This document shows positions 43,330 to 61,702 of a stretch of 64,000 bases of DNA, piece after piece; the first letter of the stretch is position 1, and each line of letters opens with the position of its first letter. The position numbers were made by a program, and so were the translations under genes. The notes under the pieces are model-generated. The model was not told the DNA's origin and searched no databases. It saw only the letters and a list, made by a program, of their open reading frames with translations. Source of the stretch: a virus (taxonomy: Duplodnaviria; Caudoviricetes); the IMG/VR virus record IMGVR_UViG_3300037780_000034, positions 253,723-317,722 of that record; one strand, given 5' to 3'.

Positions 43330-45117
43330 ATGGAAGAGTTTATAAAAAGATATTTATTAAATAAAAAAGGAAAATACAAATCACAAATAACTCAAAAATA
43401 TATAGAAAATAATAACATAGTTAAAGAATTTGAATATTTGAAACAATTATTTCCTCAATTGAGTATTAGTGAAAAAATAAGATGTATTATTGAAAATAAT
43501 AACTCAGACAAGTGTTCAGAGTGTGGAGCAACCTTATACAAAATAACACAAAACAATTCATTTGTATGTAAGGATTGTGGTATTAAGATGAGAACGAAAA
43601 GGATGCAGCAAACGAACTTAGAACGATATGGAACAGCTACACCATCAAAAACCAAAGAAGTTCAAGAAAAAATGCGAAAAACAAATTTAGAAAGATACGG
43701 AACCATAGCACCATCACAGAACAAAGAAATTCAAGAAAAGACAAAACAAACAAATTTAGAACGGTATGGCGTTATAGCGCCAATACAAAACAAAGAAATT
43801 AAAGAAAAAACGCGAAAAACAAATTTGGAAAGATATGGAAAAACATCATATCTTGCAACAGACGAATGCAGGGAAAAACAGTTACAAAATTTTCGTGAAA
43901 ATAAAAAATCAATAATTAAAAAAAAAGAATATACTAGTAAAAAAAATTACGGAACATCTCATCCGATGAAAAATGAGGAATACAAAGAAAAAATAAAAAG
44001 AACAAATACAGAAAAGTATGGCGTTGAATGGTTCACACAAACATCTGAATTTAATGAAAAGTATGTTTATCCTATATACTATGAAAATCTATCTGAAACT
44101 GGAAAATATTATTGGAATAATCAAGAAAAAATATTAGAAATATATGAAAAAGAACAGTGCACAATACAAAGATTAAGTGAAATTGTTGAAATAAAACCTA
44201 AAAAACTCGCATCTATATTTCATAAAAATAATTTTAAAATACACAACAGAAAAGTATCAGATGAAGAAAACACATTTGCAAATACATTGGTAAATAATTT
44301 TGATATTGTTTTAGAAAGAAACAACAGACAAATAATTAATCCTTATGAAATAGATATTTTAATAAAAAATTATAAAGTTGGCATTGAATATAATGGACTA
44401 TATTGGCATTCGGTTGATCATACAAAAACAGATTATACTCACAAGAAAAAAGCTTTGTTGGCAAATAGCAGTGATTTAACATTATTACAATTTTTTTCAA
44501 ATGAAATTATATATAATAGTGATATAGTAAATTCAATTATATCTTCCAAGATAGGAAAAAATAAAAAAATATATGCAAGAAATTGTGTAATAAAAGAAAT
44601 ATCAAATAAAGAATATATTAATTTTTGTGAAATAAATCATTTGCAAGGGTATGGTATATCAAAAATAAGAATAGGGTTATATTATAATAATATATTAGTT
44701 TCTGTGATGTCTTTTAGTAAATCAAGATTTTCTAAAAATCACGAGTGGGAAATGATTAGATTTTGTAATATATTAAATACCACAGTAGTTGGTGGTGCAG
44801 GGAAAATGTTTAATTATTTTAAAAATACATATAATCCAAAATCAATTGTAAGTTATGCTGACGCAAGAATATCAACTGGAAGTCTTTATGAAAAATTAGG
44901 ATTTTCTTTTGTAAATCATACAAATCCTAATTATTTTTATACAGATTGTAATAATGTGTTTAATCGTATTCAATTTCAAAAACATAAACTAAAAAGTAAA
45001 TTAAAAAACTTTGATGATTCAAAAACAGAAAAACAAAATATGATAGATAATGGTTATAGAATAATTTATGATGCAGGAAATATGGTATTTGAATGGATAA
45101 ATAATAAAATAATCTAG
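43330..45117 (+). CDS. Hef-like endonuclease 6
   Basis: CSEC..CKDC, six or more TN(L/T)E(R/K)YG-type repeats, EIDILIK..GIEYNGLYWHS core, IYARNC..HLQG..EMIRFC..IYDAGN. Confidence 0.75.
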   Translation: MEEFIKRYLLNKKGKYKSQITQKYIENNNIVKEFEYLKQLFPQLSISEKIRCIIENNNSDKCSECGATLYKITQNNSFVCKDCGIKMRTKRMQQTNLERYGTATPSKTKEVQEKMRKTNLERYGTIAPSQNKEIQEKTKQTNLERYGVIAPIQNKEIKEKTRKTNLERYGKTSYLATDECREKQLQNFRENKKSIIKKKEYTSKKNYGTSHPMKNEEYKEKIKRTNTEKYGVEWFTQTSEFNEKYVYPIYYENLSETGKYYWNNQEKILEIYEKEQCTIQRLSEIVEIKPKKLASIFHKNNFKIHNRKVSDEENTFANTLVNNFDIVLERNNRQIINPYEIDILIKNYKVGIEYNGLYWHSVDHTKTDYTHKKKALLANSSDLTLLQFFSNEIIYNSDIVNSIISSKIGKNKKIYARNCVIKEISNKEYINFCEINHLQGYGISKIRIGLYYNNILVSVMSFSKSRFSKNHEWEMIRFCNILNTTVVGGAGKMFNYFKNTYNPKSIVSYADARISTGSLYEKLGFSFVNHTNPNYFYTDCNNVFNRIQFQKHKLKSKLKNFDDSKTEKQNMIDNGYRIIYDAGNMVFEWINNKII

Positions 45118-45130: not shown

Positions 45131-45745
45131 ATGCATATTAAAGAAATTATAACAGAAAGCACACCAAAAACACTGTATCACGGAACAATTAAAAAAAACT
45201 TACCTAGCATAATGAAATATGGGGTAGAACCTCGGGTTGGAGATTTTACACGTGATGCATACTGGGAATACAAGGATGCAGGAATAGAATTACCAAGATT
45301 ATTATTTGCTGCTGACAAACGTGGACTACGAAAATGCATTAGTGCAATAATTGGTGCAATGAAAAGTAGTGGAATACAGATTACACCAGAAAACTTTTAT
45401 GAACACGCCGTTATAGTAGTCTTTAAACAAGGTGAAGAATATTTTGATTATAGAAGTGATGATGATCTGGAAAACGAATACCCAACTGTAGAACCAGAAG
45501 ATTATTATAGAAAATATAACTGGGTTCCAGATTATTATTTAACTGGAAAAAAGCTGTTAACATTTCTTAGAAAAAATAAAGTTGGTTTGACTTATGGTTT
45601 TGATAACTTAGATATTGAAGGCAAAAAAAGTGGAGCCATAAAAGATATACTTAAAATGGCTCCACAAACAGATAAATCAGAACTTTTAAAAATGACGCCA
45701 ACTCAATTATCAGATTTGCTAATTAAATTGAAATATAAAAAATAA
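45131..45745 (+). CDS. Putative ADP-ribosyltransferase-fold protein with CTS-like leader
   Basis: LYHGT....LPSIMKYGVEP resembles the first strand of Tpt1/PARP-type ARTs; N-terminus MHIKEIITE|S. Confidence 0.5.
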   Translation: MHIKEIITESTPKTLYHGTIKKNLPSIMKYGVEPRVGDFTRDAYWEYKDAGIELPRLLFAADKRGLRKCISAIIGAMKSSGIQITPENFYEHAVIVVFKQGEEYFDYRSDDDLENEYPTVEPEDYYRKYNWVPDYYLTGKKLLTFLRKNKVGLTYGFDNLDIEGKKSGAIKDILKMAPQTDKSELLKMTPTQLSDLLIKLKYKK

Positions 45746-45746
45746 G

Positions 45747-46280
45747 TTAACTTCTGTTTAATATATCCATTAATTTTTGTTTTTGTTCTGTTGGCATATT
45801 TAGTATGGTAGTTGCAACGTCTCTGATTTTCTTGTCATCTGTTCTGCGAGTAGCAAAGTCACCTGATTTTTTACTTGGCTTCTGACCAAATTTTCCAGTG
45901 CTTAATCCACCTTGTGTTGCATATCCACGAACTATTGCTTGCTTTATTACTTCATCTATTTCATTTGTAGATAATGGAGAACTAGGTTTAGAATTTGTTT
46001 TTTTCTTAACCATTCTGATTATTTTTTCAACATCAGCACCATACCCTTTTGAACGCAAAAATGATGCCATTTGGCTTACATCTACTTGTCCATTGTTTGC
46101 TCGTAATATTGGTGCAATTTCTGCTCTTACTTGCATCATTTCGTCGTTTACTTCTTTTTGAATTTGTGAACCACTCATACCAAGCTTTGCGCCTAAATTA
46201 GTAAAAAATCTAGAAATCCCACCTACTGGTGCTTCTTGTAAATTATCAGAACTTTCTGTAATAATTTCGTTAGCTTTCAT
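45747..46280 (-). CDS. Basic hypothetical protein with CTS-like leader
   Basis: MKANEIITE|S..LQE|A; AATAAATA upstream on the minus strand (46301-46308). Confidence 0.65.
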   Translation of the reverse strand: MKANEIITESSDNLQEAPVGGISRFFTNLGAKLGMSGSQIQKEVNDEMMQVRAEIAPILRANNGQVDVSQMASFLRSKGYGADVEKIIRMVKKKTNSKPSSPLSTNEIDEVIKQAIVRGYATQGGLSTGKFGQKPSKKSGDFATRRTDDKKIRDVATTILNMPTEQKQKLMDILNRS

Positions 46281-46364
46281 TTTAAATCTCCTGTTGGTTT
46301 TATTTATTTCAACTATAATGTTATTTATTGAATAAATAATAAAATGATAGGATAGGAAAATAAA

Positions 46365-48443
46365 ATGGCTGTATACGATTTCTTTTTAAGCAGAAATGCA
46401 TCAACAACAACAATTAACAATTATGTAGGGCATCGTGGTAGACTTTTTTATGATGATATTACCGGAAACATAAGAATAAGTGATGGAACTACTGCAGGCG
46501 GAAATCCTATACCTATTACTACGGCAACAAATAATCAGACTGGAGCAGTATTACCTAGTCAAGGATTAGAAGTCACAGACGTGTTCGGATCAATTCGTAT
46601 AAAAGTTGGTGAAGGAATTGAGTTTGATGATAACAATAATATAAAACTTAAACCAGCAACTACAACTACCCTTGGTGGAATAAAGTTGGGGCCAGGTGTT
46701 TTGTTGAATGATCAAAATCAAATTGTTATAGATTCAACAGGATTAGACTTTTCTTTTGGTGATTTTTCTGCAACAATACAAACTGGACCAAGTAATACAG
46801 ATGCAGCATATCTTTCAAGTATAAACACAAATGAAGATATAGTTATTGCGTCTAACGGAACAGGCTCAATAAGCGTAGTTGGAGAATTTAATATCTTTAC
46901 TCCAAACGGAAGTATAGCAACTCGTGATCCTGTTTTTAGTGTTGACAATGTTGGCAAAATAAAAGCAACAACGCTAGACATAGAAAATTCAAATGAACTA
47001 GGATTAATGGCACCATTAAACGTTACTATAAATGAAGATGGGCTAACAAAGGTTCCTGCTGTAGTCACGGGTAGTGTTGCACAATTTACCGGACGTGACG
47101 ATAATACTTCTATAATAGTATTAGATACATATGGAATAGATTCTACCAGAACAATAACAGGTGGTGAATTTGTTTTTAGAAGTGCACGTGGAACAAATGC
47201 AATTCCAGTGGCAGTTCAAAATGATGATATACTTGGAAATATAACTGCGGCAGGATGGGCAAGCAATGGTTATGGTGGTTTAGGTGTTGGTGGTTTAAAA
47301 ATACTTGCCAATCAAAATTATACAGATGTTGCCAGAGGATCAAAATTAGAACTATATGTAACTCCAAATGGAACAATAAGTAATTCAACAATTGCAACAA
47401 TAGACGAAAATGGCATTACCCTAAATCGCAGTGATGCAGGATTATCAAATGCAACTTTTATAACTTTTGATACTACACACGTAGATGATCATACTGATGT
47501 AGGAACTCTATGCTGGAGTGCAGAAGATGGAACATTAAATTTACATCACGAAGGAAATGTTGTTCAACAAATTGGACAAGAACTTTATGCATATGTTAAA
47601 AACAATACTGGTTCTACTATAGAAGATGGAGTATGTGTAAGATTTGATGGTGCACAAAACAATGGTGAAGCAAGATTACTAATAGCACCATTTCAAGCCA
47701 ATGGAGTATATCCAAGCTTATATGGATTAGGAATAACAACACAATCTTTTGCAGATGGTGCAAACGGACGTGTTTGTGTTTGGGGAAAAATTAGTGGGTT
47801 AAATACTACTGGGCAGAATGGAGAAACGTGGATAATTGGTGATATTCTTTATGCAAGTCCAACTGTTGCCGGTGGATTAACAAAAATAAAACCAACTGCT
47901 CCAAACAATGTAGTTCCAGTTGCAGCCATATTAAAAGTAGATGCAACCGATGGTGAAATTTTTGTAAGACCTACAATAGAACAAAAAATGGATTATGGTG
48001 TATTTACACGAACAACAGACTTCCAACCAATAGCGGCGAATACTGCATATAGTGTAAGTCTAAATAATACGGAAATATCAAATGGGGTTAGTATAGGAAC
48101 ACCTACAAGTAGATTAATAGTAAGTCAAAGTGGATTGTATCAAATAGATTGGACAGTTCATTGGGCAAGTAGTGGTGGAACAAATGAAATTGACAGTTGG
48201 TATACTTGGCTCAGAAAAAATGGAACAGACATTCCGAATAGTATGAGAACAGGTGGTATAGATGGTAGAATTCCAAATGAAACAATTTCTACAACAAGAA
48301 TACTAAGTTTACAGCAAAATGATTATATAGAAGTTATGGTTGCAGTATCTAATATTAATGTTAGAGTAGATGCAGTTGCTTCTACTGCATTTGGTCCAAC
48401 TACTGCAGGATTAGAAGTAACTGTAGCACAAATACAACTTTAA
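46365..48443 (+). CDS. Virion fibre / structural protein with C-terminal C1q/TNF-like beta domain
   Basis: ATTTTLGGIKLG, FRSARGT..VQNDDILG..GW, AYVKNNTG; C-terminal SGLYQIDW..WLRKNG..DYIEV. Confidence 0.65.
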   Translation: MAVYDFFLSRNASTTTINNYVGHRGRLFYDDITGNIRISDGTTAGGNPIPITTATNNQTGAVLPSQGLEVTDVFGSIRIKVGEGIEFDDNNNIKLKPATTTTLGGIKLGPGVLLNDQNQIVIDSTGLDFSFGDFSATIQTGPSNTDAAYLSSINTNEDIVIASNGTGSISVVGEFNIFTPNGSIATRDPVFSVDNVGKIKATTLDIENSNELGLMAPLNVTINEDGLTKVPAVVTGSVAQFTGRDDNTSIIVLDTYGIDSTRTITGGEFVFRSARGTNAIPVAVQNDDILGNITAAGWASNGYGGLGVGGLKILANQNYTDVARGSKLELYVTPNGTISNSTIATIDENGITLNRSDAGLSNATFITFDTTHVDDHTDVGTLCWSAEDGTLNLHHEGNVVQQIGQELYAYVKNNTGSTIEDGVCVRFDGAQNNGEARLLIAPFQANGVYPSLYGLGITTQSFADGANGRVCVWGKISGLNTTGQNGETWIIGDILYASPTVAGGLTKIKPTAPNNVVPVAAILKVDATDGEIFVRPTIEQKMDYGVFTRTTDFQPIAANTAYSVSLNNTEISNGVSIGTPTSRLIVSQSGLYQIDWTVHWASSGGTNEIDSWYTWLRKNGTDIPNSMRTGGIDGRIPNETISTTRILSLQQNDYIEVMVAVSNINVRVDAVASTAFGPTTAGLEVTVAQIQL

Positions 48444-48770
48444 TTAACTTAGTAGATCATCGTCATTATATTTGATCATAATACCAGCATTCTTTTTTAT
48501 GTTTGCTAATTCTTGATCAAAGGTATTATGTGATGTTGATCCACACATACAATCAGCTTCACATCCACAACTGGATTCGCTATCATCGTATTCGTTATCA
48601 ACGCCAACGCTTTTTTTAAGCAATTCAGTTTTTTGTTGCAAAGGCGGCATCATTTTTTCTTTGCTTTGTTCTGGTTCTACATCAAAAGGTTGACTATCAT
48701 CACCAACCGTTCCAGATTCTATATTTTCTAATTTGTCTAACAATGCTCTTAGTATTTCGCTTATGTTCAT
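48444..48770 (-). CDS. Small acidic protein with scaffold-like ELANIKKNAGI motif
   Basis: TATAAATA on the minus strand at 48794-48801; MMPPLQQK.ELLKK; CGC..CMC. Confidence 0.65.
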   Translation of the reverse strand: MNISEILRALLDKLENIESGTVGDDSQPFDVEPEQSKEKMMPPLQQKTELLKKSVGVDNEYDDSESSCGCEADCMCGSTSHNTFDQELANIKKNAGIMIKYNDDDLLS

Positions 48771-48848
48771 AACGGTAACTCCATAATATAAATTATTTAT
48801 ATAATATTGTTAAAACAGAATAAATATAGTTATCGCAGGGATTTAGTT

Positions 48849-49934
48849 ATGAAAATAAAACAAATAACAGAAGCAACTTCTATTAATATGAATCTTTTAA
48901 AAGATTTAACAAAAATAATATTGTCTAGGTTGCCGAATACTTTTGTAGAAGATAACATATTTAAAGTTATGTTTAATGAAAAAAATATTGTTGACCTTTT
49001 AGAAAAATACCCACAAAAATCAAATACAATAAACAAACTTCGTCAATTGCAAATAGATTTTATACATAAATGGATTTTTGTAAATGTAGGAACATATGGC
49101 GCATATGAACCGGATAAACACACGATATCAATAAATGTTTCTGCTATTTCTGGAAAAACAAGTGATGTAACACTAAAAGAATTACAAAGTGCAAGAAGCG
49201 ATAACTTTTCTTTATTACCAGTATTAGTGCACGAATTGCGTCACGCAATGCAATGGATAGAATATAAAACATATGCAGACAGATCATTAACAAGTAAAGA
49301 ATATAAAAGTCGTGAAATAGAGATAGATGCTGCTTGGCACGATGTATTGGAATTATATGATCCAACCGAATTTACTAATGCAAAAATATATGCATTGCAA
49401 GTAATGGTTGCTCTTACTAAGGAAAGAGGATTAAACAAAAAACAATATGATCATTATCGTAAAAAAACTATAAAGTATTATTTTAACAATAAAACTCCGC
49501 AAAAAAAGAAAAATACTCGTGAACGTTATGAAGATTATATAAAAAATAAAATACCACAAGATATAAAAGTTTCTATATCATCTAACCATTCAATTTTGAA
49601 AAATTTTGATTTGCGAAAATTACCCAATTACAACAGTGATAAATTTTTATTACCACTATATAGAATTTTACCAAAGTTACAAAACATATTAAGTGGAGTA
49701 ACTGAACCAAATAACAACTTTGAAAAAAATATGTTAATTTTGGCGGTTACATTAGCAATGCCAGGTAATACTAAAAAATTAAAAGACTTTGCAAAATATA
49801 TGCAAAAAGTTCATAATTATTCGATAAATGATATGATTAATACTGTTGAATTAGGAATAACTAATAAAGAGAATGATTTACAATATGATTTTAATTCTAT
49901 TAAAAATTATATTAAAACACAATATGGAATTTAA
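48849..49934 (+). CDS. Zincin-like (HExxH) metallopeptidase 1 with CTS-like leader
   Basis: VLVHELRH plus downstream EIEIDA; start MKIKQITE|A at 48849, 23 nt after AATAAATA (48819-48826). ORF track starts at 48807. Confidence 0.6.
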   Translation: MKIKQITEATSINMNLLKDLTKIILSRLPNTFVEDNIFKVMFNEKNIVDLLEKYPQKSNTINKLRQLQIDFIHKWIFVNVGTYGAYEPDKHTISINVSAISGKTSDVTLKELQSARSDNFSLLPVLVHELRHAMQWIEYKTYADRSLTSKEYKSREIEIDAAWHDVLELYDPTEFTNAKIYALQVMVALTKERGLNKKQYDHYRKKTIKYYFNNKTPQKKKNTRERYEDYIKNKIPQDIKVSISSNHSILKNFDLRKLPNYNSDKFLLPLYRILPKLQNILSGVTEPNNNFEKNMLILAVTLAMPGNTKKLKDFAKYMQKVHNYSINDMINTVELGITNKENDLQYDFNSIKNYIKTQYGI

Positions 49935-49936
49935 AA

Positions 49937-50806
49937 ATGGCACAAAATGGAATATCAACACTGTCTACAAAAGAGCTAAAACAAAAAGCAAAGTTAGACT
50001 TAGCTGCTATACAAAGAGCAAATGCTAACAATCCTCGGGCAAGTTATGATTTAACACAATTACCAACAAGATATAGCGGTAATGTTTTAATAGATAACCC
50101 AAATACAGGAGGATTAATAACAGGCAGACCTTGGATAGAAACAATTTCGTCATTTGTTAATCCAACATTGGATATAGGTTCAAGCGTAACTGTAGTGGCA
50201 CAAAGTCCATTTTCTGGTGGAGGAAATAGTTATAGCTTTATACAATCAACTAACAGTTATATAGACGTAGCAGCAAGCGAAGATTGGGCATTAAGAACAG
50301 GTGATTTTACTATAGAATGGTTTGGATTACAAACATCATTTAACCAATTTGAAAGAGTATTCACAGTTGATGATTTTCCAAGTATTGATGTTGGTGTTAG
50401 CATAGAAGGTGCAGTATTTTATTATTGGGCTAATAGTGGTTTTAGATATAGCAAAGGAGCAAGCACAACTACCAATGTTTGGTATCATTGGGCTGTAGTA
50501 AGACAAAGTGGAGTAACCAGAATATACAGAAATGGAACACTATGGGGATTACAGTTTAATGATACAAATGACATTAATAATACAATAAATCCTCTAACTA
50601 TAGGTGCATCAAATGCACACGGCACAGAGGCATCTTGGGTAGGATATATAACTAATTTTCGTTGGATAAAAGGATTAGCAGTATATACAGGAGACTTTAC
50701 CGTTCCTACCACATCATTAACTGCAACAGCAACGGCAAATCCATATGGAGGATCAAATACCCAAGCTATTCCAGATGGTGTAACAAAATTATTATTGGTG
50801 CCATAA
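49937..50806 (+). CDS. LamG / concanavalin-like domain virion protein
   Basis: GDFTIEW..WYHWAVVRQSG..IYRNG..GYITNFRWIKGLAVYTGDFTVPT. Confidence 0.7.
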   Translation: MAQNGISTLSTKELKQKAKLDLAAIQRANANNPRASYDLTQLPTRYSGNVLIDNPNTGGLITGRPWIETISSFVNPTLDIGSSVTVVAQSPFSGGGNSYSFIQSTNSYIDVAASEDWALRTGDFTIEWFGLQTSFNQFERVFTVDDFPSIDVGVSIEGAVFYYWANSGFRYSKGASTTTNVWYHWAVVRQSGVTRIYRNGTLWGLQFNDTNDINNTINPLTIGASNAHGTEASWVGYITNFRWIKGLAVYTGDFTVPTTSLTATATANPYGGSNTQAIPDGVTKLLLVP

Positions 50807-50807
50807 A

Positions 50808-52028
50808 ATGAAAATAACACAGATAACCGAAGCAACATATGAAAATGTAGAAATAATCAAAGACATAGTTAAATTTATAATTGACACTATGCCTAGCGTA
50901 ATACCATCTGATTCTGTTTATGTATATGGATTTGCAGATAATGGAAAACGTATAGACTGGATGGATAATACAAGTTCGCCAGAAATACGTTCTATAAAAG
51001 AACTTATAGAAGAACATAAAGATAATCCAAAAATAAAAAATGCTTTGATTAGAATTTCAAGCACTCCTATATATTTTCATAACACAGAAGAAAAAGTATA
51101 TCATCCAAATTACGGCGATTATGCATATGGTCCTGTTAACATATATGTTAGCAGAATACAAGGGTCTTCAAAGCCATTTATAATAAAAAAGACAAGAAAT
51201 AATCCTTATCCTTCTTTTTACCTTACTAACGTTAAACAAGTTTTATTTCACGAGTTACGCCATCTTTTTCAAGACGTTCAATATCCTGATTATCTTAGAA
51301 GCAAAAAAGCAAGAATTGATAAAAAAACAAAAACAGAACGTGAATGGGGTGAAAGACAAATAGAATGGGATGCAAAATGGACTGATATAATATCTACAAT
51401 TTCACCAGAAGATTATACCAATGAAGCAAGACACACAGATTATACATTAGACGTTATGCGTGAATTACTACAGTGGGTTAAATTGTCTCCAAAAAATCAA
51501 AAACATTATCGTAAAAAAACTATAAATTATTTTTTAGAATGGGAAAGAAAAAAATTACAAAAACAATGGAACAAGTTAGTTAAAATACTAGAACCATACG
51601 TGTTAAACGGAGGATATGATAAAACAGAATTTGTAGATTATATATTAGAAGACTTGGCTTGGTATAGTGCTGAACCAGACTTACATCCTCAAATAAAAAA
51701 CTATTATAAAACAAAATCACAAAAGTATTATGATAAACTAACAAAATCTATAAGAACAAAAAATAAAGTAAAACAATATATAGAACAATATAAAACAGAG
51801 TGGGAAAAATATTTAGAAAACTTTTTGGATGCGAACAGTAATAGAATAAGTGAAATTAATAAATTTGCTGCTGCAAGTGTTATTGTTAGTAAATTATATG
51901 ATAATAATGCAGATTTCTTTTTTTCAAAAAACTCATATATTAGTGATATAGCACAAGAAGTTAGAAAGCATTACTATAAAAGATCAGTTGAAATTATTGA
52001 TTATGTAAGAGAAAGACAAAACAAATGA
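50808..52028 (+). CDS. Zincin-like (HExxH) metallopeptidase 2 with CTS-like leader
   Basis: VLFHELRH, RQIEWDA and HYRKKTI shared with 48849; start MKITQITE|A. Confidence 0.6.
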   Translation: MKITQITEATYENVEIIKDIVKFIIDTMPSVIPSDSVYVYGFADNGKRIDWMDNTSSPEIRSIKELIEEHKDNPKIKNALIRISSTPIYFHNTEEKVYHPNYGDYAYGPVNIYVSRIQGSSKPFIIKKTRNNPYPSFYLTNVKQVLFHELRHLFQDVQYPDYLRSKKARIDKKTKTEREWGERQIEWDAKWTDIISTISPEDYTNEARHTDYTLDVMRELLQWVKLSPKNQKHYRKKTINYFLEWERKKLQKQWNKLVKILEPYVLNGGYDKTEFVDYILEDLAWYSAEPDLHPQIKNYYKTKSQKYYDKLTKSIRTKNKVKQYIEQYKTEWEKYLENFLDANSNRISEINKFAAASVIVSKLYDNNADFFFSKNSYISDIAQEVRKHYYKRSVEIIDYVRERQNK

Positions 52029-52597
52029 GATTAAGTGAATTAAAAGGATATCGTAGTGAACCTCTTTATGATATATTAAGCAATAGTTTGAACATTACGG
52101 AATTCATTGAAAACCTAAAGCAAAGTGGTTATAAAAAATATTTAATAGGTGAAGGATTTTATGCAGGAGTATTCTCTAGACCAACAGACAATTATGTTAT
52201 TAAAATATTTGAAAACGATCCTGGATATGAAAAATTTATAAAGTATGTTTTATCAAATCGTGACAACCCACACGTTCCAAAAATAAAAAGTAAACCTATT
52301 AGATTTTTAAAAAAATATAAAATTCTAAGAATAGAAAAATTACAAAAGCTAGATAAAAACAATGAACAGCAAATGGAAATTTATAAATCAATTGTAAACT
52401 ATATAAGTGACTATGGCAAAGATTACAAATACGCTGTAATAAATAGAAAAAAATTACAAAAACAATTTCCAAAATTAATACCAATATTAAACGAATTACA
52501 AAGTAATAAATACTTATTGGACTTATCTCACAATAACATTATGTTTAGAAATCAAAATACACCAGTTATTACTGATCCTTATGCGGACTTTATATGA
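52025..52597 (+). CDS. Minimal protein-kinase-fold protein
   Basis: IGEGFYAGV (Gly loop), VIKIF (Lys), DLSHNNIMF (catalytic loop), ITDP. Confidence 0.65.
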   Translation: MRLSELKGYRSEPLYDILSNSLNITEFIENLKQSGYKKYLIGEGFYAGVFSRPTDNYVIKIFENDPGYEKFIKYVLSNRDNPHVPKIKSKPIRFLKKYKILRIEKLQKLDKNNEQQMEIYKSIVNYISDYGKDYKYAVINRKKLQKQFPKLIPILNELQSNKYLLDLSHNNIMFRNQNTPVITDPYADFI

Positions 52598-52598
52598 T

Positions 52599-53603
52599 AT
52601 GAAATATATAACTTTAATAGAAAATACAAACACTATAATAGATAATGTAAATGGATGGGGAAGTGTTCCTTATAACCAAAATGTAAACTATATGGGACTT
52701 CGTGTAAAAATGAAACCAAGCATATTTTTACAATTAGCAGCACCACTAAGCGAACCAACGTCTAAAAACGATATAATTAATCATTTACAAAACGGTGGAA
52801 AAATAGGAGCGCCTTTTTTAAACATTAAAGTTCCGGTAGAATGGAGTGATGATAATCACTTAGAAATAGCAAAAGTTTCTCAACACGAAGGCCGAAACCG
52901 TATGAAAGCAATTTTAGAACTATATGGTGACATTCCTACAGAAACACATTTATTTTTTAGTGGTGGAATTAACAGAAACCGTCATATTACCAGTGATATA
53001 ATTAAAGAACTGCAAACACATCTTTATAGTGAAAATCAAAATCTAATCAGTATTAATCAACCACTTTTCACTGTTATGAATGATGATAACAAAAAAGTAA
53101 CCGAAAGCATAAACCCAGTTTACGCTTATCCATTTTCTTGGAAAACACACTCACCCGCAAAAGAATATAAACTTTTATTACAAGACTTAACCGATAATAA
53201 TTCCACATCAGAAAAAGGATTAGTTCGTGCAGAATTCAACATTCCAACCCTCGATCCAAAAACACATTATGACCATTATTGCATAGTAAATGCAACCATA
53301 ACTATAATAAAAAATAAAAACAACGATATTAAAAAAATAATAGAAAACTTTGAGTTCAGTATAGATTATAATTATAAAACCACTAACATACAAAAAACAA
53401 AAGCATCACGCATATACGCAACAGTAGCAAAAGTATTGCAACAAATAATTCAAGAAGTTAATCCAGATAAAATACATATTATAGCAAATGAATTACGCAA
53501 AGAAAAATTTTATGAAAAACTTATAAATCGTATACCACAATATCACATCAGTAATGAATTAAAAAATAGACTAGGCTTAAAATACATTATTAGCAAAAAA
53601 TGA
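52599..53603 (+). CDS. Two-domain protein, N-terminal ParB/Srx-like domain
   Basis: PFL..HEGRNR motif; start MKYITLIE|N at 52599; internal linker KKVTE|S. Confidence 0.5.
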   Translation: MKYITLIENTNTIIDNVNGWGSVPYNQNVNYMGLRVKMKPSIFLQLAAPLSEPTSKNDIINHLQNGGKIGAPFLNIKVPVEWSDDNHLEIAKVSQHEGRNRMKAILELYGDIPTETHLFFSGGINRNRHITSDIIKELQTHLYSENQNLISINQPLFTVMNDDNKKVTESINPVYAYPFSWKTHSPAKEYKLLLQDLTDNNSTSEKGLVRAEFNIPTLDPKTHYDHYCIVNATITIIKNKNNDIKKIIENFEFSIDYNYKTTNIQKTKASRIYATVAKVLQQIIQEVNPDKIHIIANELRKEKFYEKLINRIPQYHISNELKNRLGLKYIISKK

Positions 53604-54307
53604 TACTATTCTATACAATCACAGATTTGCCAATGTGGAACACATTAGTTGAAGAAAAGATTCAACTAATGAAAAACAAAAACCTATGGCAATCATTTGA
53701 AAAAATATATCTGTTATGTCACTATAATCCACAATCATTTAACAATTTGTTAAATCAATACAGCAATGATCCAAGAATAAACACAATAACATATACCGAC
53801 AGTGTTAACCCACTAGCCGAAATATATTCAAATATAACAATTAAAAGTATTTGTGATTCACTAAATCAAAATACACCTATATTCCGTTATCATACCAAAG
53901 GATTATCACAACTGCATAATCACAACAGAATAAAATCACTAAAATGGAACAATTACTTAGACTATTATAATATTATACAGTGGCGAAATACTATAAAATA
54001 TTTAGATACATACGATACGGTAGGAGTAAATGTTCATCAACCAACACATTACAGTGGAAACATATATTGGGCAAATAGCGATTATATAAAAACACTACCA
54101 CAATTTCCAAAACCACACACCAACGACTTCCAAAAATGTATACCACAAAGTTACAGCCTTAGACACGATAGCGAACTATGGATAGGATTAGGAAATCCAA
54201 ATTATAAAGAATTACATCACTACGAACACGCAACGGTATACAATGTTAATCCACCAGAAATGATCATCTACAACAAACACATAACATTCACTACAACAGA
54301 AAATTAA
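53600..54307 (+). CDS. Hypothetical protein, possibly glycosyltransferase-like
   Basis: RYHTKG..YDTVGV..HYSGNIYWANSDYIKTLP..RHDSELWIG; the family assignment is from memory and weak. Confidence 0.45.
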   Translation: MILFYTITDLPMWNTLVEEKIQLMKNKNLWQSFEKIYLLCHYNPQSFNNLLNQYSNDPRINTITYTDSVNPLAEIYSNITIKSICDSLNQNTPIFRYHTKGLSQLHNHNRIKSLKWNNYLDYYNIIQWRNTIKYLDTYDTVGVNVHQPTHYSGNIYWANSDYIKTLPQFPKPHTNDFQKCIPQSYSLRHDSELWIGLGNPNYKELHHYEHATVYNVNPPEMIIYNKHITFTTTEN

Positions 54308-55983
54308 TCAGTGTTACTACTATCACGCATCGCAGATAATAAACGATTTCCCTCACTCCAGCGAATACCTAAAACATTATTTTCAAAAGTATCATTAATC
54401 AATTTAGCCTCGTCATAATCCGCCAATTCACGCATAACAGATAACAATTCACGCTCACCTTGTGGCCAATTGTGATCCTTTATAAGCTCAAAATAATCCC
54501 ATATAATACCACTGTAAACCTGATTAATAATAGTGTTGCTATTCAATCCACGTATACGTTTAATTATATAATTATCCAATGTTTTTTGTAAATTTGCATC
54601 AATATCTTTAAAATACTTATACATACGCAAGTCACGTAATATTAATTTTGCTTTCAATTTATTACTGTTTGTGTGTATCATACCCATAAACTTACTAGGA
54701 ATAACATTACTTGGAGTAGCATAAGTAAGCAAAATTCGTAATGCAGCATCAATAGTTTGTTGATCTGTTCGTAAAAATTCAACAGGAGATAATGCACCAG
54801 CGAATACTTCACGTGGTTCTATTATTACTTTCTTTTTATCAGGATTCACAAAACGTTCAACAACATCAACCACATTGCGACCAAAAAATACCGCCTGAAC
54901 TGGTTCATTGTCGTGTATAATTCCAATGCCTAAACTATCGTCAACATAATCATAACCTAATACACGATGTAACAAATATGTCCACATTACTGAACTACTT
55001 TTTGCCTTAAGTGAACCTTTCTTATATTCCACTATAATACTTTCATTAGTATCAGGAGCATATTGTGGATTTCCCTTATATAACCGATGAAATGGCCAGA
55101 AAAATTCTGATTTTTTGTTGTTAATGTGCTTTAATATTACACCACCTTTTTCAAAATCTACATCAATTATACGATAACGCGGGGTAGCATTGGGGTTATT
55201 TAACACAGCTAAATTACCAATCGCAAATTTCAAACCAGATAATGCCTTTGCATATTCATTTTTAGTAGTATCACTAACAACCGTAATATCGGGATCATCA
55301 ACACTTATAACAATACTATCAATAACGTTGTTTTCCGTATCTAAAAATTCTACCTCATACTCCTCACTATCATAAATGTCAGTGATAACGCCAGTTTTTC
55401 CCTTATACCTAATACGATCATTAATCTTTAATAAATTACCAGTATAAACAGATAAACTACTACTACCAGTTAATATTTTTGCCAAAATACGAGTTAAATT
55501 CCATATATAACCACTAGAACTTTGATTTTTTGCATCCCTAATACTAAACGATACTATCTTATCAAAAACATCATCATTAATACGTTTATCACGATCATTG
55601 ACAAACTCAAACAATTTATCACGATCACTATTAAAATTAGCAGTATCATACTCACCAATAACTAAACCATTGGTGTTATTCTTAGGACGAAATAACCATA
55701 TATAAGGCGACTCACCCATATATGGAACACCCGCTTTTAATCCACTACGTTCAATGTCACTAACCATAGCATCATTCAATGGATAACTGTAAATACCAAT
55801 AGGAGTATTATATCCACTACGAGGATTAATACCCAACTTGTCAAGCATAGTGTAACTAATATAATAATACTCATTACCACGGAGACTACTATAATATTGT
55901 AATACCTTTACTATATCACTAGCACTGGTTCTAGGATTACGATCCCCACCACGACGAGCTTCGGTAATTTCATTATAACGCAT
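54304..55983 (-). CDS. Hypothetical multidomain protein with CTS-like leader
   Basis: MRYNEITE|A; KLGINPRSGYNTPIGIYSYP; YDYVDD..GIIHDNEPVQAVFF. Confidence 0.7.
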   Translation of the reverse strand: MRYNEITEARRGGDRNPRTSASDIVKVLQYYSSLRGNEYYYISYTMLDKLGINPRSGYNTPIGIYSYPLNDAMVSDIERSGLKAGVPYMGESPYIWLFRPKNNTNGLVIGEYDTANFNSDRDKLFEFVNDRDKRINDDVFDKIVSFSIRDAKNQSSSGYIWNLTRILAKILTGSSSLSVYTGNLLKINDRIRYKGKTGVITDIYDSEEYEVEFLDTENNVIDSIVISVDDPDITVVSDTTKNEYAKALSGLKFAIGNLAVLNNPNATPRYRIIDVDFEKGGVILKHINNKKSEFFWPFHRLYKGNPQYAPDTNESIIVEYKKGSLKAKSSSVMWTYLLHRVLGYDYVDDSLGIGIIHDNEPVQAVFFGRNVVDVVERFVNPDKKKVIIEPREVFAGALSPVEFLRTDQQTIDAALRILLTYATPSNVIPSKFMGMIHTNSNKLKAKLILRDLRMYKYFKDIDANLQKTLDNYIIKRIRGLNSNTIINQVYSGIIWDYFELIKDHNWPQGERELLSVMRELADYDEAKLINDTFENNVLGIRWSEGNRLLSAMRDSSNTD

Positions 55984-55986
55984 AAG

Positions 55987-57336
55987 TTATATTATCCCAC
56001 TTAAATATTTTAGTCTTTTTATAAAATTTTCATTAACTGAAGATGATGATGACGACATACGTGAGACTATATCTTTCCATTCATCATATGAATATGGTTT
56101 GTCATTTATCCACCAACTTTTTGTTCCATCTGCATCTTCAACAGCAGGACCATCAATCCGATGAAGTTTGCCATTTTGATACCACCTTTTTGTTCCATCT
56201 GCTCGTTCAACAGCAGGGCCATCAATCCGATGAAGTTTGCCATTTATCCACCAACTTTTTGATCCATCACTATATTCAACAGCAGGACCATCAATCCGAT
56301 GAACTTGACCATTTATCCACCATATTTTTGTTCCATCTGCATCTTCAACAGCAGGACCATCAATGCGATGACGTTTGTCATTTTGATACCAAATTTTTGA
56401 TCCATTTGGATATTCAACAGCAGGACCATCAATCCGATGAAGTTTGTCATTTATATACCACCGTTTTGTTCCATCTGCTCGTTCAACAGCAGGGCCATCT
56501 TCACGGTGAAGTTTGTCATTTTGATACCACATTTTTGTTCCATCACTATATTCAACCGCAGGGCCATCTTCACGGTGAAGTTGGTTATCATTGTTATAAT
56601 AAGTATTACCAATAATCCACTGATTTGGTTTGTAATCAACCTTGCCTAACTTTTTAAATACACCAAATATAGTTTTATGTTTCTTAAAAAAATCTATAAT
56701 ATTAATAGGTTCATCACGTTCATCCATATATTGATTGCTATTAAAATGAAATTGCCATCTGGTATTAGTAGGTTTATGTAATATAATATAAAGAGGTCCA
56801 TCTACATCATAATGTTTAAACATATTATTATTACGCGAAGCAGTGCACCAACGAGTATTACGACCATAATAACAACTAGCTTCTTCTGTCTTTGGTATTA
56901 TTACCTTATACTCATTATCGTCATAAACAATATTAGCTTCACCACTGCTAACATATTTGTCAGCCATTTCGCTCTTACTAGTTACATCTACATCACTATA
57001 TTCATCAACTATATCTTCTATATCGCTTATCCGGTTAATATCACGATGCTCAGGCTTTAACTTCTTTTTATTACCTAAACTCATATACTTTTTCAATGCA
57101 CCACTAATACGACTAGGAATATCTTCTAACCGCTTTATATCACCGCGCAAATACCTAACTATCATCCAATTAACATATTTTTTTGCAGGACTAGGATCAT
57201 AAAGTTCTAACCAAGTAACAAAACCATCACCATCTTCACCAATTACATCTATAAATGGTTTCCCTTCACTCTGCCACCTACTCGCAAATTTTTCCTTATT
57301 GTAATTAATATATTCTAATAAAGTATGCATACCCAA
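55987..57336 (-). CDS. Repeat protein: N-terminal CYYG..TRWCTAS domain plus seven HR(E/I)DGPAVE repeats
   Basis: 23-aa tandem repeats; ends IKRLKYLSGII; AATAAATA upstream on the minus strand (57356-57363). Confidence 0.75.
   Translation of the reverse strand: MGMHTLLEYINYNKEKFASRWQSEGKPFIDVIGEDGDGFVTWLELYDPSPAKKYVNWMIVRYLRGDIKRLEDIPSRISGALKKYMSLGNKKKLKPEHRDINRISDIEDIVDEYSDVDVTSKSEMADKYVSSGEANIVYDDNEYKVIIPKTEEASCYYGRNTRWCTASRNNNMFKHYDVDGPLYIILHKPTNTRWQFHFNSNQYMDERDEPINIIDFFKKHKTIFGVFKKLGKVDYKPNQWIIGNTYYNNDNQLHREDGPAVEYSDGTKMWYQNDKLHREDGPAVERADGTKRWYINDKLHRIDGPAVEYPNGSKIWYQNDKRHRIDGPAVEDADGTKIWWINGQVHRIDGPAVEYSDGSKSWWINGKLHRIDGPAVERADGTKRWYQNGKLHRIDGPAVEDADGTKSWWINDKPYSYDEWKDIVSRMSSSSSSVNENFIKRLKYLSGII
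56101..56590 (-). repeat. Seven in-frame 69-bp tandem repeats
   Basis: The acagcagg(a/g)ccatc core recurs every 69 nt (e.g. 56141, 56210). Confidence 0.9.
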
Positions 57337-57618
57337 AACTCCCTGTAATAAATACTATTTATTTAATAAAGCATAACTTTAAAATAATAAAGCATATCAG
57401 TAAACATAACTGAAGAACAAAATTTTGTAAAATAAAAACCATAGTTTATTATAACTTATTTAAAATTATCTAAACCATAAAAACATATTTTACAACATAA
57501 TATAAAATCCCAAAAAATCCTTAAGGCAACGAATCAAAAAAAAATTTCCCGCCAAAAAAAATCCATACCCCATAAAAACACATTTACTAAAATTTCAATA
57601 GGGTAAAAAACTACAATG

Positions 57619-57786
57619 AAAACTATTATAGAAACTATTATAGAAACTATTATAGAAACTATTATAGAAACTATTATAGAAACTATTATAGAAACTATTA
57701 TAGAAACTATTATAGAAACTATTATAGAAACTACGATGAATATTATTATAGAAACTACGATGGAAACTACGATGAAAACTATCGTG
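57619..57786. repeat. 12-bp tandem repeat GAAACTATTATA
   Basis: Eight perfect copies at 57631-57726, a one-mismatch copy at 57619, and degenerate GAAACTACGATG copies after. Confidence 0.95.
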
Positions 57787-58090
57787 GGAAAAATTCCATG
57801 TGCCGCCGATTGGAAAAAAATGGTCTGTATAAAATGTTAGGGGTGGGACTCCCGAATCACTGATTCGCTGTACACTACATGTGCCTGGTGATTCGTCAAG
57901 CAAAATTTTTCAAAAATAAAAATATTTTTTTTCTAGCTTGACAGACATTTTTGCAACACAATAATGCGAATCGTTTAGTATTAAACTATCCGACATAATG
58001 GTTCAATGATTAAACCAATCATCGTAGGGGCACACAGTGGCCCACACAATGCCACCATTGTATTGCCTACCCTACCCTACCTGTGATTAC

Positions 58091-58133
58091 GGATGCCGGG
58101 TCAGTGGGCCGTACAATGGCTCTACGATGCTAT
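58091..58133. repeat. Intergenic repeat family A, copy 1 (43 bp)
   Basis: GGATGCCGGGTCAGTGGGCCGTACAATGGCTCTACGATGCTAT; 41/43 identical to 59538-59580. Confidence 0.9.
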
Positions 58134-58209
58134 GCACAATGCCCCTTACGATAGACAAAAAAATAGGCGGGGTATTATCCCCGCCATTATTATCCCATAT
58201 TGTTTAGGA

Positions 58210-59397
58210 TTATTCTTTTATTGTGGCGCGCGTGATATTTGTTTGTTTGATATTATTATATTCACGGTGTGCTTTCACGGTAAAGTCCACAGTAAGTTTT
58301 TCACCTGTTTCAATATATTTTTTTCCGGTGAACCAAGTGAATTGATTACCAGTATTATCGGTAAAGTTATACAGATATTGTTCACCATAACCGCGATCCC
58401 CCATTGCGATTTCACGATTGACAGTCAATTCAATTCCACGATACCGAGTCCCGATTGTTCCAAAGTAATCGGAAACCGTGGCGGCATTATTGTTTTCAAT
58501 TTGTTTTGCACGATCACGCACAATAACATTTACAGCCGACACGGCGATTGCAAGGTGTTTTGTTTTGATCAGATCATCACCGATAATAACGCGCAGGTTA
58601 TTGATATAATCGCCATTCTCAGGATTATATTCCATTGTGCGAAAATGATTCATTACTGTTTCCGCCATTGCAATATCTGCTTCGGTAACGGTAATCGGGC
58701 GATGCTTTGCATTCGGTTTAAGATCATGGAATACGCGATTTTCGGTTGTCACGATTGTTTCATCATAAGAGTTCATTGCCATTGCTTTTGAAACCCAACC
58801 GGATTCACGAATATTAGCAGCAGCATATTGCAGAACAGTTTTGGTATTATAATAATCGGAACCATATCCGGCGAATGTGAGTTCATCATTTACGGCAGTT
58901 TTAATTTCAGCGAGGAAACCAGCGCGACCAGCGATTTCCAGAGGATTATCGCATCCGGTAAAGTCACGCAAACATGTGCGCCCGATTGCCAGTTGATCAC
59001 CATTTGAATTTTCAAAAACATATACATCATTGCGAACACGATTATGCCCACAATGATCACATTCCGAAACCATATGACGGAAGCGTTCATTCAATTCGGT
59101 GCCAGCAATATTATTGACGATATTTTCACCATCACGCAATTCAACACGAGCGAGAAAACGATGATCACCATATTTCGGCGCATCACCCCAAACAACAATA
59201 TCCACAAAAGTGGTAGTAATATTGCGAGGACGATTGTCGATATAAATGGTAGTATCTTTGGGATATTCTTTGCCAATGGTGTAGCCGATTGGATTGTTAC
59301 CATACTTGTTTGCCTTGCGTGCAAGCTTGTCCAGCCGCTTGATCAGATCAGCAAGGTTCAGGGCAGGGACGGCAAAGGTGTCGATGGTGGTGGTCAT
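58210..59397 (-). CDS. Early protein with CxxC Zn motif and C-terminal OB-fold-like domain
   Basis: CDHCGH..GRTCLRDF; YFGTIG..YNFTD..TWFT..TVKAHREY. Likely ATG at 59397 after GGAG (ORF track starts at 59448). Confidence 0.7.
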   Translation of the reverse strand: MTTTIDTFAVPALNLADLIKRLDKLARKANKYGNNPIGYTIGKEYPKDTTIYIDNRPRNITTTFVDIVVWGDAPKYGDHRFLARVELRDGENIVNNIAGTELNERFRHMVSECDHCGHNRVRNDVYVFENSNGDQLAIGRTCLRDFTGCDNPLEIAGRAGFLAEIKTAVNDELTFAGYGSDYYNTKTVLQYAAANIRESGWVSKAMAMNSYDETIVTTENRVFHDLKPNAKHRPITVTEADIAMAETVMNHFRTMEYNPENGDYINNLRVIIGDDLIKTKHLAIAVSAVNVIVRDRAKQIENNNAATVSDYFGTIGTRYRGIELTVNREIAMGDRGYGEQYLYNFTDNTGNQFTWFTGKKYIETGEKLTVDFTVKAHREYNNIKQTNITRATIKE

Positions 59398-59446
59398 AGC
59401 GATCTCCGAATCGTTGCGGGACAATGCCCGATGAACATTGCCCAAC

Positions 59447-59475
59447 ATATAGGGAAATTTTAATACTACGTCAAC
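59447..59475 (-). promoter_or_regulatory. Alphaproteobacterial-type RpoD promoter
   Basis: GTTGAC-N17-CTATAT on the minus strand; CGATTCG in the leader at 59407-59413. Confidence 0.7.
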
Positions 59476-59537
59476 ACCATATTTTCACCATATAAGCGCC
59501 ATCATAGTGTCAGGCTACCCTACCCTATAAAAAATCA

Positions 59538-59580
59538 GGATGCCGGGTCAGTGAGGCGTACAATGGCTCTACGATGCTAT
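59538..59580. repeat. Intergenic repeat family A, copy 2
   Basis: See copy 1; both copies are preceded by CTACCCTACCCT. Confidence 0.9.
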
Positions 59581-59581
59581 T

Positions 59582-59863
59582 CTATGGCGTATCCAAGGTG
59601 GTGCTACGGATGCAAACATAATCGCGATTATTGACTAGATATGTTCGCATTTGTTTTTCGCGCATATTGGCGATAACGATATATCCATCATCCAGCCAAT
59701 ATACGGTATCACGATGGTTCCAATAATTAAAATTCAAAATATCATTGAATAATGTTGTTTTGCCGATGTCACGAATATCTGTAACACCGAATATATTCAT
59801 AGTGTTTTTATTATTGCGCATATGGGTTTCTTTTTGTTTTGACATTATGGGGGAGTATTTCAT
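59582..59863 (-). CDS. Small hypothetical early protein (start uncertain; likely 59845, 59821 or 59799)
   Basis: Open frame between repeat elements A and B. Confidence 0.5.
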   Translation of the reverse strand: MKYSPIMSKQKETHMRNNKNTMNIFGVTDIRDIGKTTLFNDILNFNYWNHRDTVYWLDDGYIVIANMREKQMRTYLVNNRDYVCIRSTTLDTP

Positions 59864-59871: not shown

Positions 59872-59887
59872 TTGTGTTTATGTATGT

Positions 59888-61701: not shown

Positions 61702-61702
61702 T

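Follow-up and report, generated by a model that had tools for sequence, protein, structure and literature searches.

A short N-terminal leader resembling the T4 capsid-targeting sequence on late proteins of an uncultured jumbo phage

A 64,000-nucleotide (nt) stretch of phage DNA (IMG/VR record IMGVR_UViG_3300037780_000034, positions 253,723 to 317,722; here called the window) carries, at positions 45131 to 57336, a cluster of genes whose products begin with a common short N-terminal pattern. Over the whole genome, this leader of 8 to 10 residues was found on ∼17 to 20 otherwise unrelated late proteins. Since it closely resembles the tag that loads proteins into the head of phage T4, it probably marks proteins that this phage packs with its DNA. 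In the reading that we favour, at a probability of roughly 0.65, the shared N terminus is a capsid-targeting propeptide of the T4 type whose cargo set is larger than in T4 and rich in enzyme-like proteins. The window forms the final 64 kb of a 317,722-bp contig, on which 419 genes were called with a codon-usage and ribosome-binding-site heuristic; coordinates are window positions unless marked "genome."

The leader and its carriers

The leader has the consensus M-[RK]-[IY]-N-[EQ]-[IL]-(I/L)-x-E. An earlier note on this DNA had listed nine carriers in the window, and all nine N termini it quoted were found in the genes given below (a bar within a motif marks the predicted cut; L041 is a related metagenomic contig).

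45131 to 45745, plus strand: 204-amino-acid (aa) protein with leader MHIKEIITE|S, then the invariant STPKTLYHGT; Tpt1/KptA/DarT-like candidate of the ADP-ribosyltransferase (ART) superfamily
45747 to 46280, minus strand: 177-aa basic protein with leader MKANEIITE|S, isoelectric point (pI) 9.9 without the leader; L041 orthologue starts MKLNQIVNE|N
48444 to 48770, minus strand: 108-aa acidic Cys-rich protein starting MNISEIL; L041 orthologue starts the same
48849 to 49934, plus strand: 361-aa HExxH (zincin-like) protein with leader MKIKQITE|A and HELRH in the translation
50808 to 52028, plus strand: 406-aa HExxH (zincin-like) paralogue with leader MKITQITE|A, also HELRH, in an operon downstream of 48849
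52025 to 52597, plus strand: 190-aa T7 gp0.7-like protein-kinase candidate starting MRLSEL (PHROG 15752, E = 9e-11)
52599 to 53603, plus strand: 334-aa protein with variant leader MKYITLIE|N; L041 orthologue (59% identity) starts MRLKQLKE|D
54304 to 55983, minus strand: 559-aa protein with leader MRYNEITE|A, then a conserved RRxxxxNP; predicted tandem SH3/Tudor-like barrels
55987 to 57330, minus strand: 447-aa protein with short leader MHTLLE|Y and a C-terminal MORN-type repeat array

Five of these leaders are canonical (45131 and the 46280 minus-strand gene, 48849, 50808, and the 55983 minus-strand gene). Two are variants (52599 and the 57330 minus-strand gene) whose orthologue (L041, MRLKQLKE|D) or paralogues (e.g., genome 17593, MRYIELLLE|D) have canonical leaders. 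The kinase-like protein at 52025 and the small acidic protein at 48770 keep only the first half of the leader, as do their L041 orthologues, and are regarded as weak members because they lack an [ILV]-x-E site of the cleavage type. The observation of the earlier note, which had already called these two weaker, is confirmed.

In a scan of the whole proteome, the regular expression ^M[KRH]..[EQ][ILM].{1,3}E (here called the regex) matched 17 of the 419 N termini. By comparison, 2,000 column shuffles, in which each of the first 12 positions was permuted among all proteins so that the position-specific composition of this AT-rich genome was kept, gave a mean of 0.76 matches and a maximum of 5. Among internal Met positions, 1 of 1,769 fitted the regex. 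A stricter form yielded 13 matches versus 0.10 expected, and none at internal Met residues. An [IL]-x-E end fell at residues 8 to 10 in 16 of the 17 matches (the named exception, genome 13611, has LVE); ends seen were ITE|S, ITE|A, LTE|S, LLE|A, and INE|I. Leader lengths ranged from 6 to 10 aa, with Ile, Leu, or Val at P3, the third residue before the cut.

The set proved larger than the approximately nine proteins first proposed. About 17 to 20 carriers are spread over the genome: to those of the window cluster, a second cluster at genome 177 to 28,587 adds the leaders MRYCELFE, MRINQIITE, MKINQIISE, MRYNEIKLVE, MRINQLTE, MRINQLLE, MRYIELLLE, MRYHEIINE, and MRLNKLNE, and three isolated leader genes are located at genome 66107, 123070, and 195164.

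The leader is modular. Paralogy was rejected as the cause of the common start, since all-against-all BLASTP linked carriers into just four small groups (48849/50808; 13611/19568; 17593/27343/55987; 151569/153476) and detected nothing in common among the remaining carriers beyond the leader. Conservation at the nucleotide level, such as a recombination box, was rejected as well: Arg in the leaders is encoded by CGT, AGA, CGG, AGG, and CGA, and the codons for Ile, Leu, Thr, and Asn differ too. This synonymous variation indicates selection at the peptide level. For two unrelated cargos modelled with AlphaFold2, the leader was the least confident part, with a predicted local distance difference test score (pLDDT) of <50 at residues 1 to 10 of the 204-aa protein and 1 to 8 of the 559-aa protein, and the structured protein followed directly.

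Late promoters

Late genes of T4 have the promoter TATAAATA, whose core, the heptamer ATAAATA, is also that of a late-gene motif predicted in the Rak2-like phages CBB and GAP32 (PMC5259590). The genome contains 188 copies, 102 of which lie within 120 nt upstream of gene starts, and 64 of these 102 are 25 to 39 nt upstream. As stated in the earlier note, several genes of the window cluster follow such a motif, here at a distance of 27 to 34 nt.

45097 to 45103, plus strand: late-type promoter core ATAAATA, 34 nt upstream of 45131
46301 to 46307, minus strand: ATAAATA late motif for the 46280 minus-strand gene
48794 to 48800: ATAAATA late motif for the 48770 minus-strand gene
48820 to 48826: ATAAATA late motif for the 48849 gene
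57356 to 57362: ATAAATA late motif for the 57330 minus-strand gene

ATAAATA was found directly ahead of 8 of 17 leader genes versus 68 of 402 others (P = 0.005). When short-gap operons were counted, the numbers rose to 15 of 17 versus 133 of 402 (33%; Fisher P = 6.7e-6). Judged by their promoters, the leader genes are predicted to be expressed late, at the same stage as the head genes. The leader is missing from late genes of fibre-like type that lie within the window cluster (46365 to 48443; 49937 to 50806, LamG); hence, the tag is not a general late-gene feature.

Head genes, predicted protease, and phage affiliation

The major capsid protein (6906 to 8063, Pfam Gp23) is 65 to 71% identical to those of Sinorhizobium phage Phosso, Vibrio phage 2.275.O, the Pseudomonas phage PA5oct, and the Rak2-like phages GAP32, CBB, and BF, which identifies the phage as an uncultured jumbo phage of the Rak2/PA5oct supergroup. 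The whole genome has a GC content of 31%. In a sequencing-run search, near-identical DNA was present in pond and other metagenome runs only (three runs, all DNA metagenomes and none RNA, one of them perhaps the source of the contig), and megablast of the 12-kb interval against a phage collection returned no match. The contig ends do not overlap, and neither circular permutation nor terminal repeats could be demonstrated.

The genes at 2201 to 8063 encode, in this order, a portal protein, a 71-aa protein, a 293-aa acidic protein, an S77 protease, a 367-aa coiled-coil protein, and the capsid protein, matching the T4 order 20-67-68-21-22-23. The first is a T4-type portal (PF07230) and is followed by these genes.

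3931 to 4146, plus strand: 71-aa protein at the gp67 position with leader-like start MNIIKEYYE|A
4260 to 5141, plus strand: 293-aa, highly acidic head-core protein at the gp68 position; PA5oct and CBB orthologues are annotated as structural
5148 to 5783, plus strand: gp21-type prohead serine protease (Peptidase_S77; PF03420, E = 2e-20; PHROG 207, E = 1.6e-54)
5780 to 6883, plus strand: 367-aa coiled-coil protein at the gp22 scaffold position (PHROG 10922; synteny with T4)
6906 to 8063, plus strand: Gp23-family major capsid protein (PF07068, E = 4e-102)

Proteins at the gp67 position also have leader-type starts in the relatives, namely, MKINDIITE|G in PA5oct (EST35_0150), MLDEIFE|A in CBB, and MKLVELFE|A in the Vibrio phage. 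By analogy with T4, the S77 protease is presumed to remove the leaders and the 367-aa protein is presumed to be the core on which they dock. The protease has an N-terminal site of its own, IVTE|A, and [IL][VI]xE is found at residues 17 to 20 in all four phages compared, including PA5oct, CBB, and the Vibrio phage. In the capsid protein, the LME|S site reported earlier is present at residues 38 to 41 (nt 7017 to 7028), where maturation is predicted. Its N terminus has three [VL]-x-E candidates (VME28, VLE32, and LME40), of which LME|S alone is kept in all five phages and lies nearest the core. This L-x-E|[STN] site is immediately ahead of the conserved core, which aligns from residue 19 of mature T4 gp23*. 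Co-folding of protease residues 21 to 211 with the first 40 residues of the 45747 to 46280 protein gave a score of 0.01 and speaks neither for nor against binding.

Virion evidence from cultured relatives

In PA5oct, four of five leader proteins are flagged as virion proteins by electrospray ionization tandem mass spectrometry (ESI-MS/MS): EST35_0150 (MKINDIITE|G), EST35_0238 (MKIKDILVE|S), which is the orthologue of genome 66107, EST35_0380 (MRLNEINLIE|T), and EST35_0381 (MKILEFNLTE|K). The leader-bearing EST35_0382 (64 aa) has no such flag. With 93 of the 461 gene products as the virion background (PMC7318152), a count of four in five has a binomial probability of ∼0.007, for a set that is partly post hoc. 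The sole strong match in CBB, CBB_321 (MRYNQLQE|A, 536 aa), is termed "structural protein" in the GenBank record, and the CBB paper describes a study of CBB virion proteins by ESI-MS/MS. The virion records of PA5oct and CBB give no N termini.

Junction conservation in metagenomic relatives

The leader and its junction are conserved in metagenomic relatives. The 559-aa family comprises 52 database proteins, i.e., 51 metagenomic homologues and the phage's own copy. Its junction, [ILVMF]xE|[AKVR][RK][RKS], falls at residue 8 in 36 of these proteins and at residues 9 to 17 in most others, and it sits just ahead of a conserved RRNPxxNP motif whatever the length of the leader. In some of these relatives, a sigma-70 region 1.1 domain has been added. 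Eight homologues of the ART-like protein differ in their leader residues (MHIKEIITE, MLINEVLTE, MRYSEILCE, MIINDIITE, and MKYREIINE), yet all of them have E9 and S10, and the PKTLYHGT after S10 is invariant or nearly so.

L041, an ENA contig (225-271-kb, 35% GC), contains a syntenic cluster in which ATAAATA precedes each of the leader genes (kinase-like, 658-aa, 191-aa, zincin-like, 155-aa, and ART-like). In a 484-aa protein of this contig, a zincin is joined to the orthologue of the 45131 protein (62% identity), and the equivalent of the leader is kept at the joint as ...HIGEETVME|SIPRTLYHGT. In P0033 and P0037, from a 382-kb contig, the start MRYQEIKIILE| and another domain precede a 559-family domain, which is internal and follows ...VPE|ARRNP; neighbours of the two start MRYRDLLIVE| and MKYRDIRIVE|. 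A protease-type site kept at domain boundaries is what a cleavage signal predicts. These fusions (zincin-VME|S-ART in L041 and ...VPE|ARRNP... in the 382-kb contig) suggest that cargo domains may be strung together as polyproteins, which the prohead protease would split inside the capsid.

Candidate functions of the cargo

Weak matches of several kinds offer leads to enzyme functions of the cargo, which should not be read as assignments; for most cargos, PHROGs contained no family. The ART-like label given earlier to the 45131 protein is a weak but consistent lead. Pfam PTS_2-RNA matched 29 residues around YHGT at 16.4 bits versus a cut-off of 26, NCBIfam Tpt1 matched with an E value of 6e-4, far below its curated cut-off, and in a Foldseek search of the PDB the top 17 hits were all Tpt1/KptA, followed by DarT, at weak scores (E = 0.05 to 0.7; template modeling [TM] score 0.2 to 0.26; model pLDDT 67). 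A [YF]H[GS] motif occurs within ∼20 residues of the leader in at least four further leader proteins (genome 177, 1050, 16052, and 16618), and the genome 16052 protein matches ART-PolyVal with an E value of 0.002.

The two proteins previously called zincins do have the HExxH motif and are 31% identical to each other. Their profile matches stay below the curated Pfam cut-off (for 48849, DUF6782 metallopeptidase at 18.4 bits versus 27), and Atlas neighbours of 48849 (LPD23, SprT, and M78-like) are a lead only. With a zincin query, tblastn yielded one weak match only, in Salicola phage SCTP-2, and a search of viral contigs for related loci found none. The kinase-like reading of 52025, a protein with no cleavage-type site in its leader, is supported by the PHROG match, and its L041 orthologue, which starts MRINEIS, belongs to PF27024 (Phage_T7_kinase).

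The ParB-like reading of 52599 to 53603 was rejected: Pfam, PHROGs, and NCBIfam gave no match, and Atlas structures gave a TM score of 0.28 to a ParB-like cluster (18% of members with ParB_N) and of 0.26 to GNAT clusters. For the 559-aa protein (AlphaFold2 mean pLDDT 79.6), a fold search returned weak matches to tandem Tudor/SH3/KOW-like barrels for the middle part only and nothing for the terminal domains, and tblastn found no match. The N-terminal domain of the 447-aa protein is common to the carriers at genome 17593 (MRYIELLLE|D) and 27343 (MRLNKLNE|A). The genome 13611 protein lies at the Amidoligase_2 threshold (22.6 bits versus a cut-off of 22), and the carrier at genome 195164 is basic (pI 10.7).

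Comparison with known packaging systems

The capsid-targeting sequence of T4 is the textbook route for loading proteins into a head in advance; IPI, which counters restriction, and Alt, an ADP-ribosyltransferase, are delivered with the DNA in this way. T4 N termini (NC_000866) include MELITE|L in Alt, MKTYQEFIAE|A in IPII and IPIII, MAKINELLRE|S in gp24, MLKEQLIAE|A in gp22, and MEGLIE|A in gp67; internal sites are ...LLIE|T in gp21 and ...FLTE|A in gp23. In sequence, the leader motif matches T4 sites that were mapped experimentally. T4 IPIII with Asp in place of the Glu just before the cut is reportedly packaged although it stays uncleaved. Alt loses six residues at ITE-6 (PMC5694885), and the first ten residues of IPIII are sufficient for head targeting, with residues 4 and 7 serving targeting and residues 8 and 10 serving processing (PMC9026906).

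Like the T4 capsid-targeting and gp21 propeptides (IPI, IPII, IPIII, Alt, gp24, gp22, gp67, and gp68), the leaders are short (6 to 10 aa here versus 6 to 19 aa in T4), sit on otherwise unrelated late proteins, and end in (I/L)-x-E ahead of a small residue, several of those found here in ITE itself. Both phages share the S77 (gp21) protease and the gene order described above, and in both one cargo (here a candidate) is of the ADP-ribosyltransferase type with a leader ending in ITE (PMC9026906, PMC5694885). In contrast to T4, however, the consensus is MRYNEIxE/MKINEIITE instead of MKTYQEFIAE, ∼17 to 20 predicted cargo proteins compare with ∼4 noncore cargos, and the cargo is mostly 150 to 630 aa long and enzyme-like, whereas that of T4 is small and basic. 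Relatives of this phage chain cargo domains through internal sites, unlike T4, and the 318-kb Rak2/PA5oct-type phage is itself distant from T4 (best capsid match to T4 gp23, E = 2e-46).

The jumbo phages phiKZ, 201phi2-1, and SPN3US likewise pack many head proteins, which their prohead protease processes after Glu. The cleavage motif of the phiKZ type is S/A/G-x-E. Packaged proteins of SPN3US are ejected into the host cell (PMC5694885, PMC10052503), and inner-body proteins of the phiKZ/SPN3US type have long propeptides (PMC5694885). The leaders described here, in contrast, are mostly 8 to 10 aa long with Ile or Leu at P3, as in T4. Assignment to the phiKZ/SPN3US type, with its long propeptide and small P3 residue, was rejected for leaders of 6 to 10 aa with Ile, Leu, or Val at P3. 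In phage P1, an N-terminal signal of DarB also loads anti-restriction cargo into the capsid and can carry a reporter (PMC9024508). The P1 signal differs in its length of ∼30 residues, is not common to a large family, and is not known as a short [IL]-x-E propeptide; P1 also has no separate scaffold.

Polyvalent proteins of phages and conjugative elements, as reportedly described by Iyer and colleagues in 2017, are giant fusions that are presumed to be delivered with the DNA against host defences. Their repertoire overlaps with the ART-PolyVal-like, zincin/LPD-like, and amidoligase-like matches found here, all of them at or below curated Pfam cut-offs, and the same role is presumed. Unlike those fusions, the cargos here are mostly separate genes, each with its own leader, next to the two-domain fusion in L041. 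In the papers searched, such a leader was described neither outside T-even phages nor in the Rak2/PA5oct group. While a system of this kind is known from T4, its presence with a consensus of its own in Rak2/PA5oct-type jumbo phages appears to be undescribed, as, apparently, are the expansion to ∼20 mostly enzyme-like cargos and their chaining through internal sites.

Proposed route and competing explanations

According to the reading that we prefer, ∼17 to 20 proteins with an 8- to 10-residue leader, nine of them from window 45131 to 57336, would be made late in infection. The N-terminal half of the leader may dock these proteins on the prohead scaffolding core (products of window 3931 to 6883) before the shell closes. 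The S77 protease (5148 to 5783) would then cut after the Glu of [IL]-x-E; cuts by the same enzyme are also predicted at LME|S in the capsid protein and at IVTE|A in the protease itself. Mature cargo would be freed inside the DNA-filled head rather than the tail and would probably leave with the DNA at the next infection, where ART-like, zincin-like, kinase-like, and amidoligase-like cargos might act in host takeover or against host defences. The head-loading interpretation of the earlier note is thus supported in part, by the modularity of the leader, selection on the peptide, late promoters, gp21-type [IL]-x-E ends, a protease and core in T4 order, and the virions of relatives; the two of nine proteins without a site do not fit.

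Several observations weigh against this reading. Besides those two members, part of the likeness among leaders may follow from base composition: Lys, Ile, Asn, and Glu, in which these N termini abound, have A/T-rich codons, and at 31% GC such codons are favoured near starts. Late expression was assigned from motif and position, not from transcripts. The phage itself is known from a pond-metagenome contig alone, and the virion evidence comes from relatives, in which the same regex matched few proteins (5 of 539 in CBB, 3 of 342 in PA5oct, and 3 of 462 in the Vibrio phage), so that the large set is specific to the lineage. The weak CBB matches are not virion proteins. EST35_0381 entered the PA5oct set because it was noticed as a neighbour of EST35_0380, and the PA5oct virion list includes enzymes that its authors deem unrelated to the virion (PMC7318152). 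Mass spectrometry of virions is also blind to location in the head or the tail.

The tag might load proteins and be cleaved as proposed while the cargo is mainly structural, i.e., part of an inner body, a DNA-condensing component, or an ejection conduit rather than a set of effector enzymes. This alternative draws on the radiation-sensitive inner body that bubblegrams revealed in the Rak2-like phages phAPEC6 and 121Q (PMC7247149), on the weakness of the enzyme assignments, and on several basic carriers that fall into no enzyme family, e.g., 45747 to 46280 (pI 9.9) and genome 195164 (pI 10.7). We nevertheless regard it as unlikely, as HExxH, the invariant YHGT with Tpt1/KptA/DarT-like fold matches, the T7-kinase-like match (E = 9e-11), Amidoligase_2, and ART-PolyVal point to catalysis, and the packaged Alt of T4 is an ADP-ribosyltransferase with the same ITE| propeptide end (PMC5694885). 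More improbable still is a leader that is only a protease-removed or regulatory cap, keeping, for example, toxic enzymes inactive until late, or one that directs proteins to tail, baseplate, or fibres. The mass spectra of PA5oct and CBB are silent on the part of the virion concerned, and the window cluster is interleaved with fibre-like genes (46365 to 48443; 49937 to 50806, LamG). Those fibre-like genes, however, have no leader, whereas the same leader type occurs on the gp67-position head-core protein beside the portal in PA5oct, CBB, and the Vibrio phage, and the equivalent T4 sequence is sufficient for head targeting (PMC9026906).

We give very little credence to the leader being a by-product of translation initiation or codon bias, or a relic of shared ancestry of a short N-terminal helix with no signalling role. 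The low GC content and the residues of the leader would suit such an origin. The column-shuffle control argues against codon bias as the main cause (0.76 matches versus 17 observed), as does the frequent Arg at position 2, encoded by five different G/C-containing codons. Furthermore, Glu at the end of the leader and Ile or Leu at P3 are kept across families and in L041 at 35% GC, the junction persists at internal fusion points, and other late structural genes have no leader.

A wider form of the capsid-targeting reading can be put forward only tentatively, its odds being somewhat short of even: the 8- to 10-aa tag with its [IL]-x-E site may single out every protein that phages of a large uncultured jumbo clade package and inject, with polyprotein chaining and with ∼20 cargos here, including as candidates several ART-like enzymes, two zincins, and amidoligase-like and T7-kinase-like proteins. 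If this form were true, the tag would identify the inner-body or ejected proteins of Rak2-type phages and could provide a search key for injected anti-defence effectors in metagenomes. If T4-type loading operates here, a simple sequence rule would list the preloaded proteins of a whole group of giant phages, most members of which are known from metagenomes only and whose internal head contents are seen by cryo-electron microscopy (phAPEC6, PMC7247149). Such a rule would further nominate ∼20 candidate first-strike effectors for biochemical testing, suggest polyprotein processing inside capsids, and offer a short natural tag to load foreign proteins into jumbo-phage heads.

Neighbouring genes and repeats

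Right after the capsid gene, three tandem paralogous genes for proteins of ∼500 to 600 aa (window 8224 to 13286) each overlap the next, and the first two products start M[ST]D[ND]IKNKILEIITNNPRHYTR. Two large homing-endonuclease-like genes (window 33843 to 35234 and 43330 to 45117; PHROG 3339/559, E values down to 1e-120) lie among structural genes, the latter immediately upstream of the first leader gene.

At genome 1964 to 5646 on the minus strand (locus L046), nine consecutive short open reading frames (ORFs) start M[RL]NGLVE[FY]PDGTK... and a tenth starts MLIEYPNGTK, with 8-nt overlaps. They consist of the same MORN-type 23-aa repeat as the C terminus of 55987 to 57330. A second run of MORN-type short ORFs is located at genome 126924 to 128222. 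Frameshifts within a single long repeat gene could account for such runs, as could a deliberate series of overlapping genes.

A perfect 12-nt tandem repeat at window 57595 to 57903 reads ETII nine times on the plus strand and FYNS ten times on the minus strand. The gap around this repeat has few genes and separates the leader cluster from a block of higher GC content (window 58000 to 62000, 39 to 42% versus 31% for the genome). In this block, the 395-aa gene at 58210 to 59397 (minus strand) is 63% identical to an L041 gene adjoining the leader cluster there, which shows that the block is conserved and not an assembly join.

On a JGI contig of ∼382 kb (L043:10001-18353), two giant leader-bearing proteins of 870 and 1004 aa are encoded next to each other and beside a leader-bearing 778-aa protein, from which a short opposite-strand ORF separates the pair. 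A sigma-70 region 1.1 domain (PF03979) in the 1004-aa protein hints at an action of some cargos of the family on host RNA polymerase. In L041 (2500 to 7100), at least seven small genes each follow a near-identical ∼35-nt sequence with an inverted repeat (GTATC...GATAC, then ATTTATGGCTTTATC), and this unit looks like a repeated promoter or operator for an early gene set.

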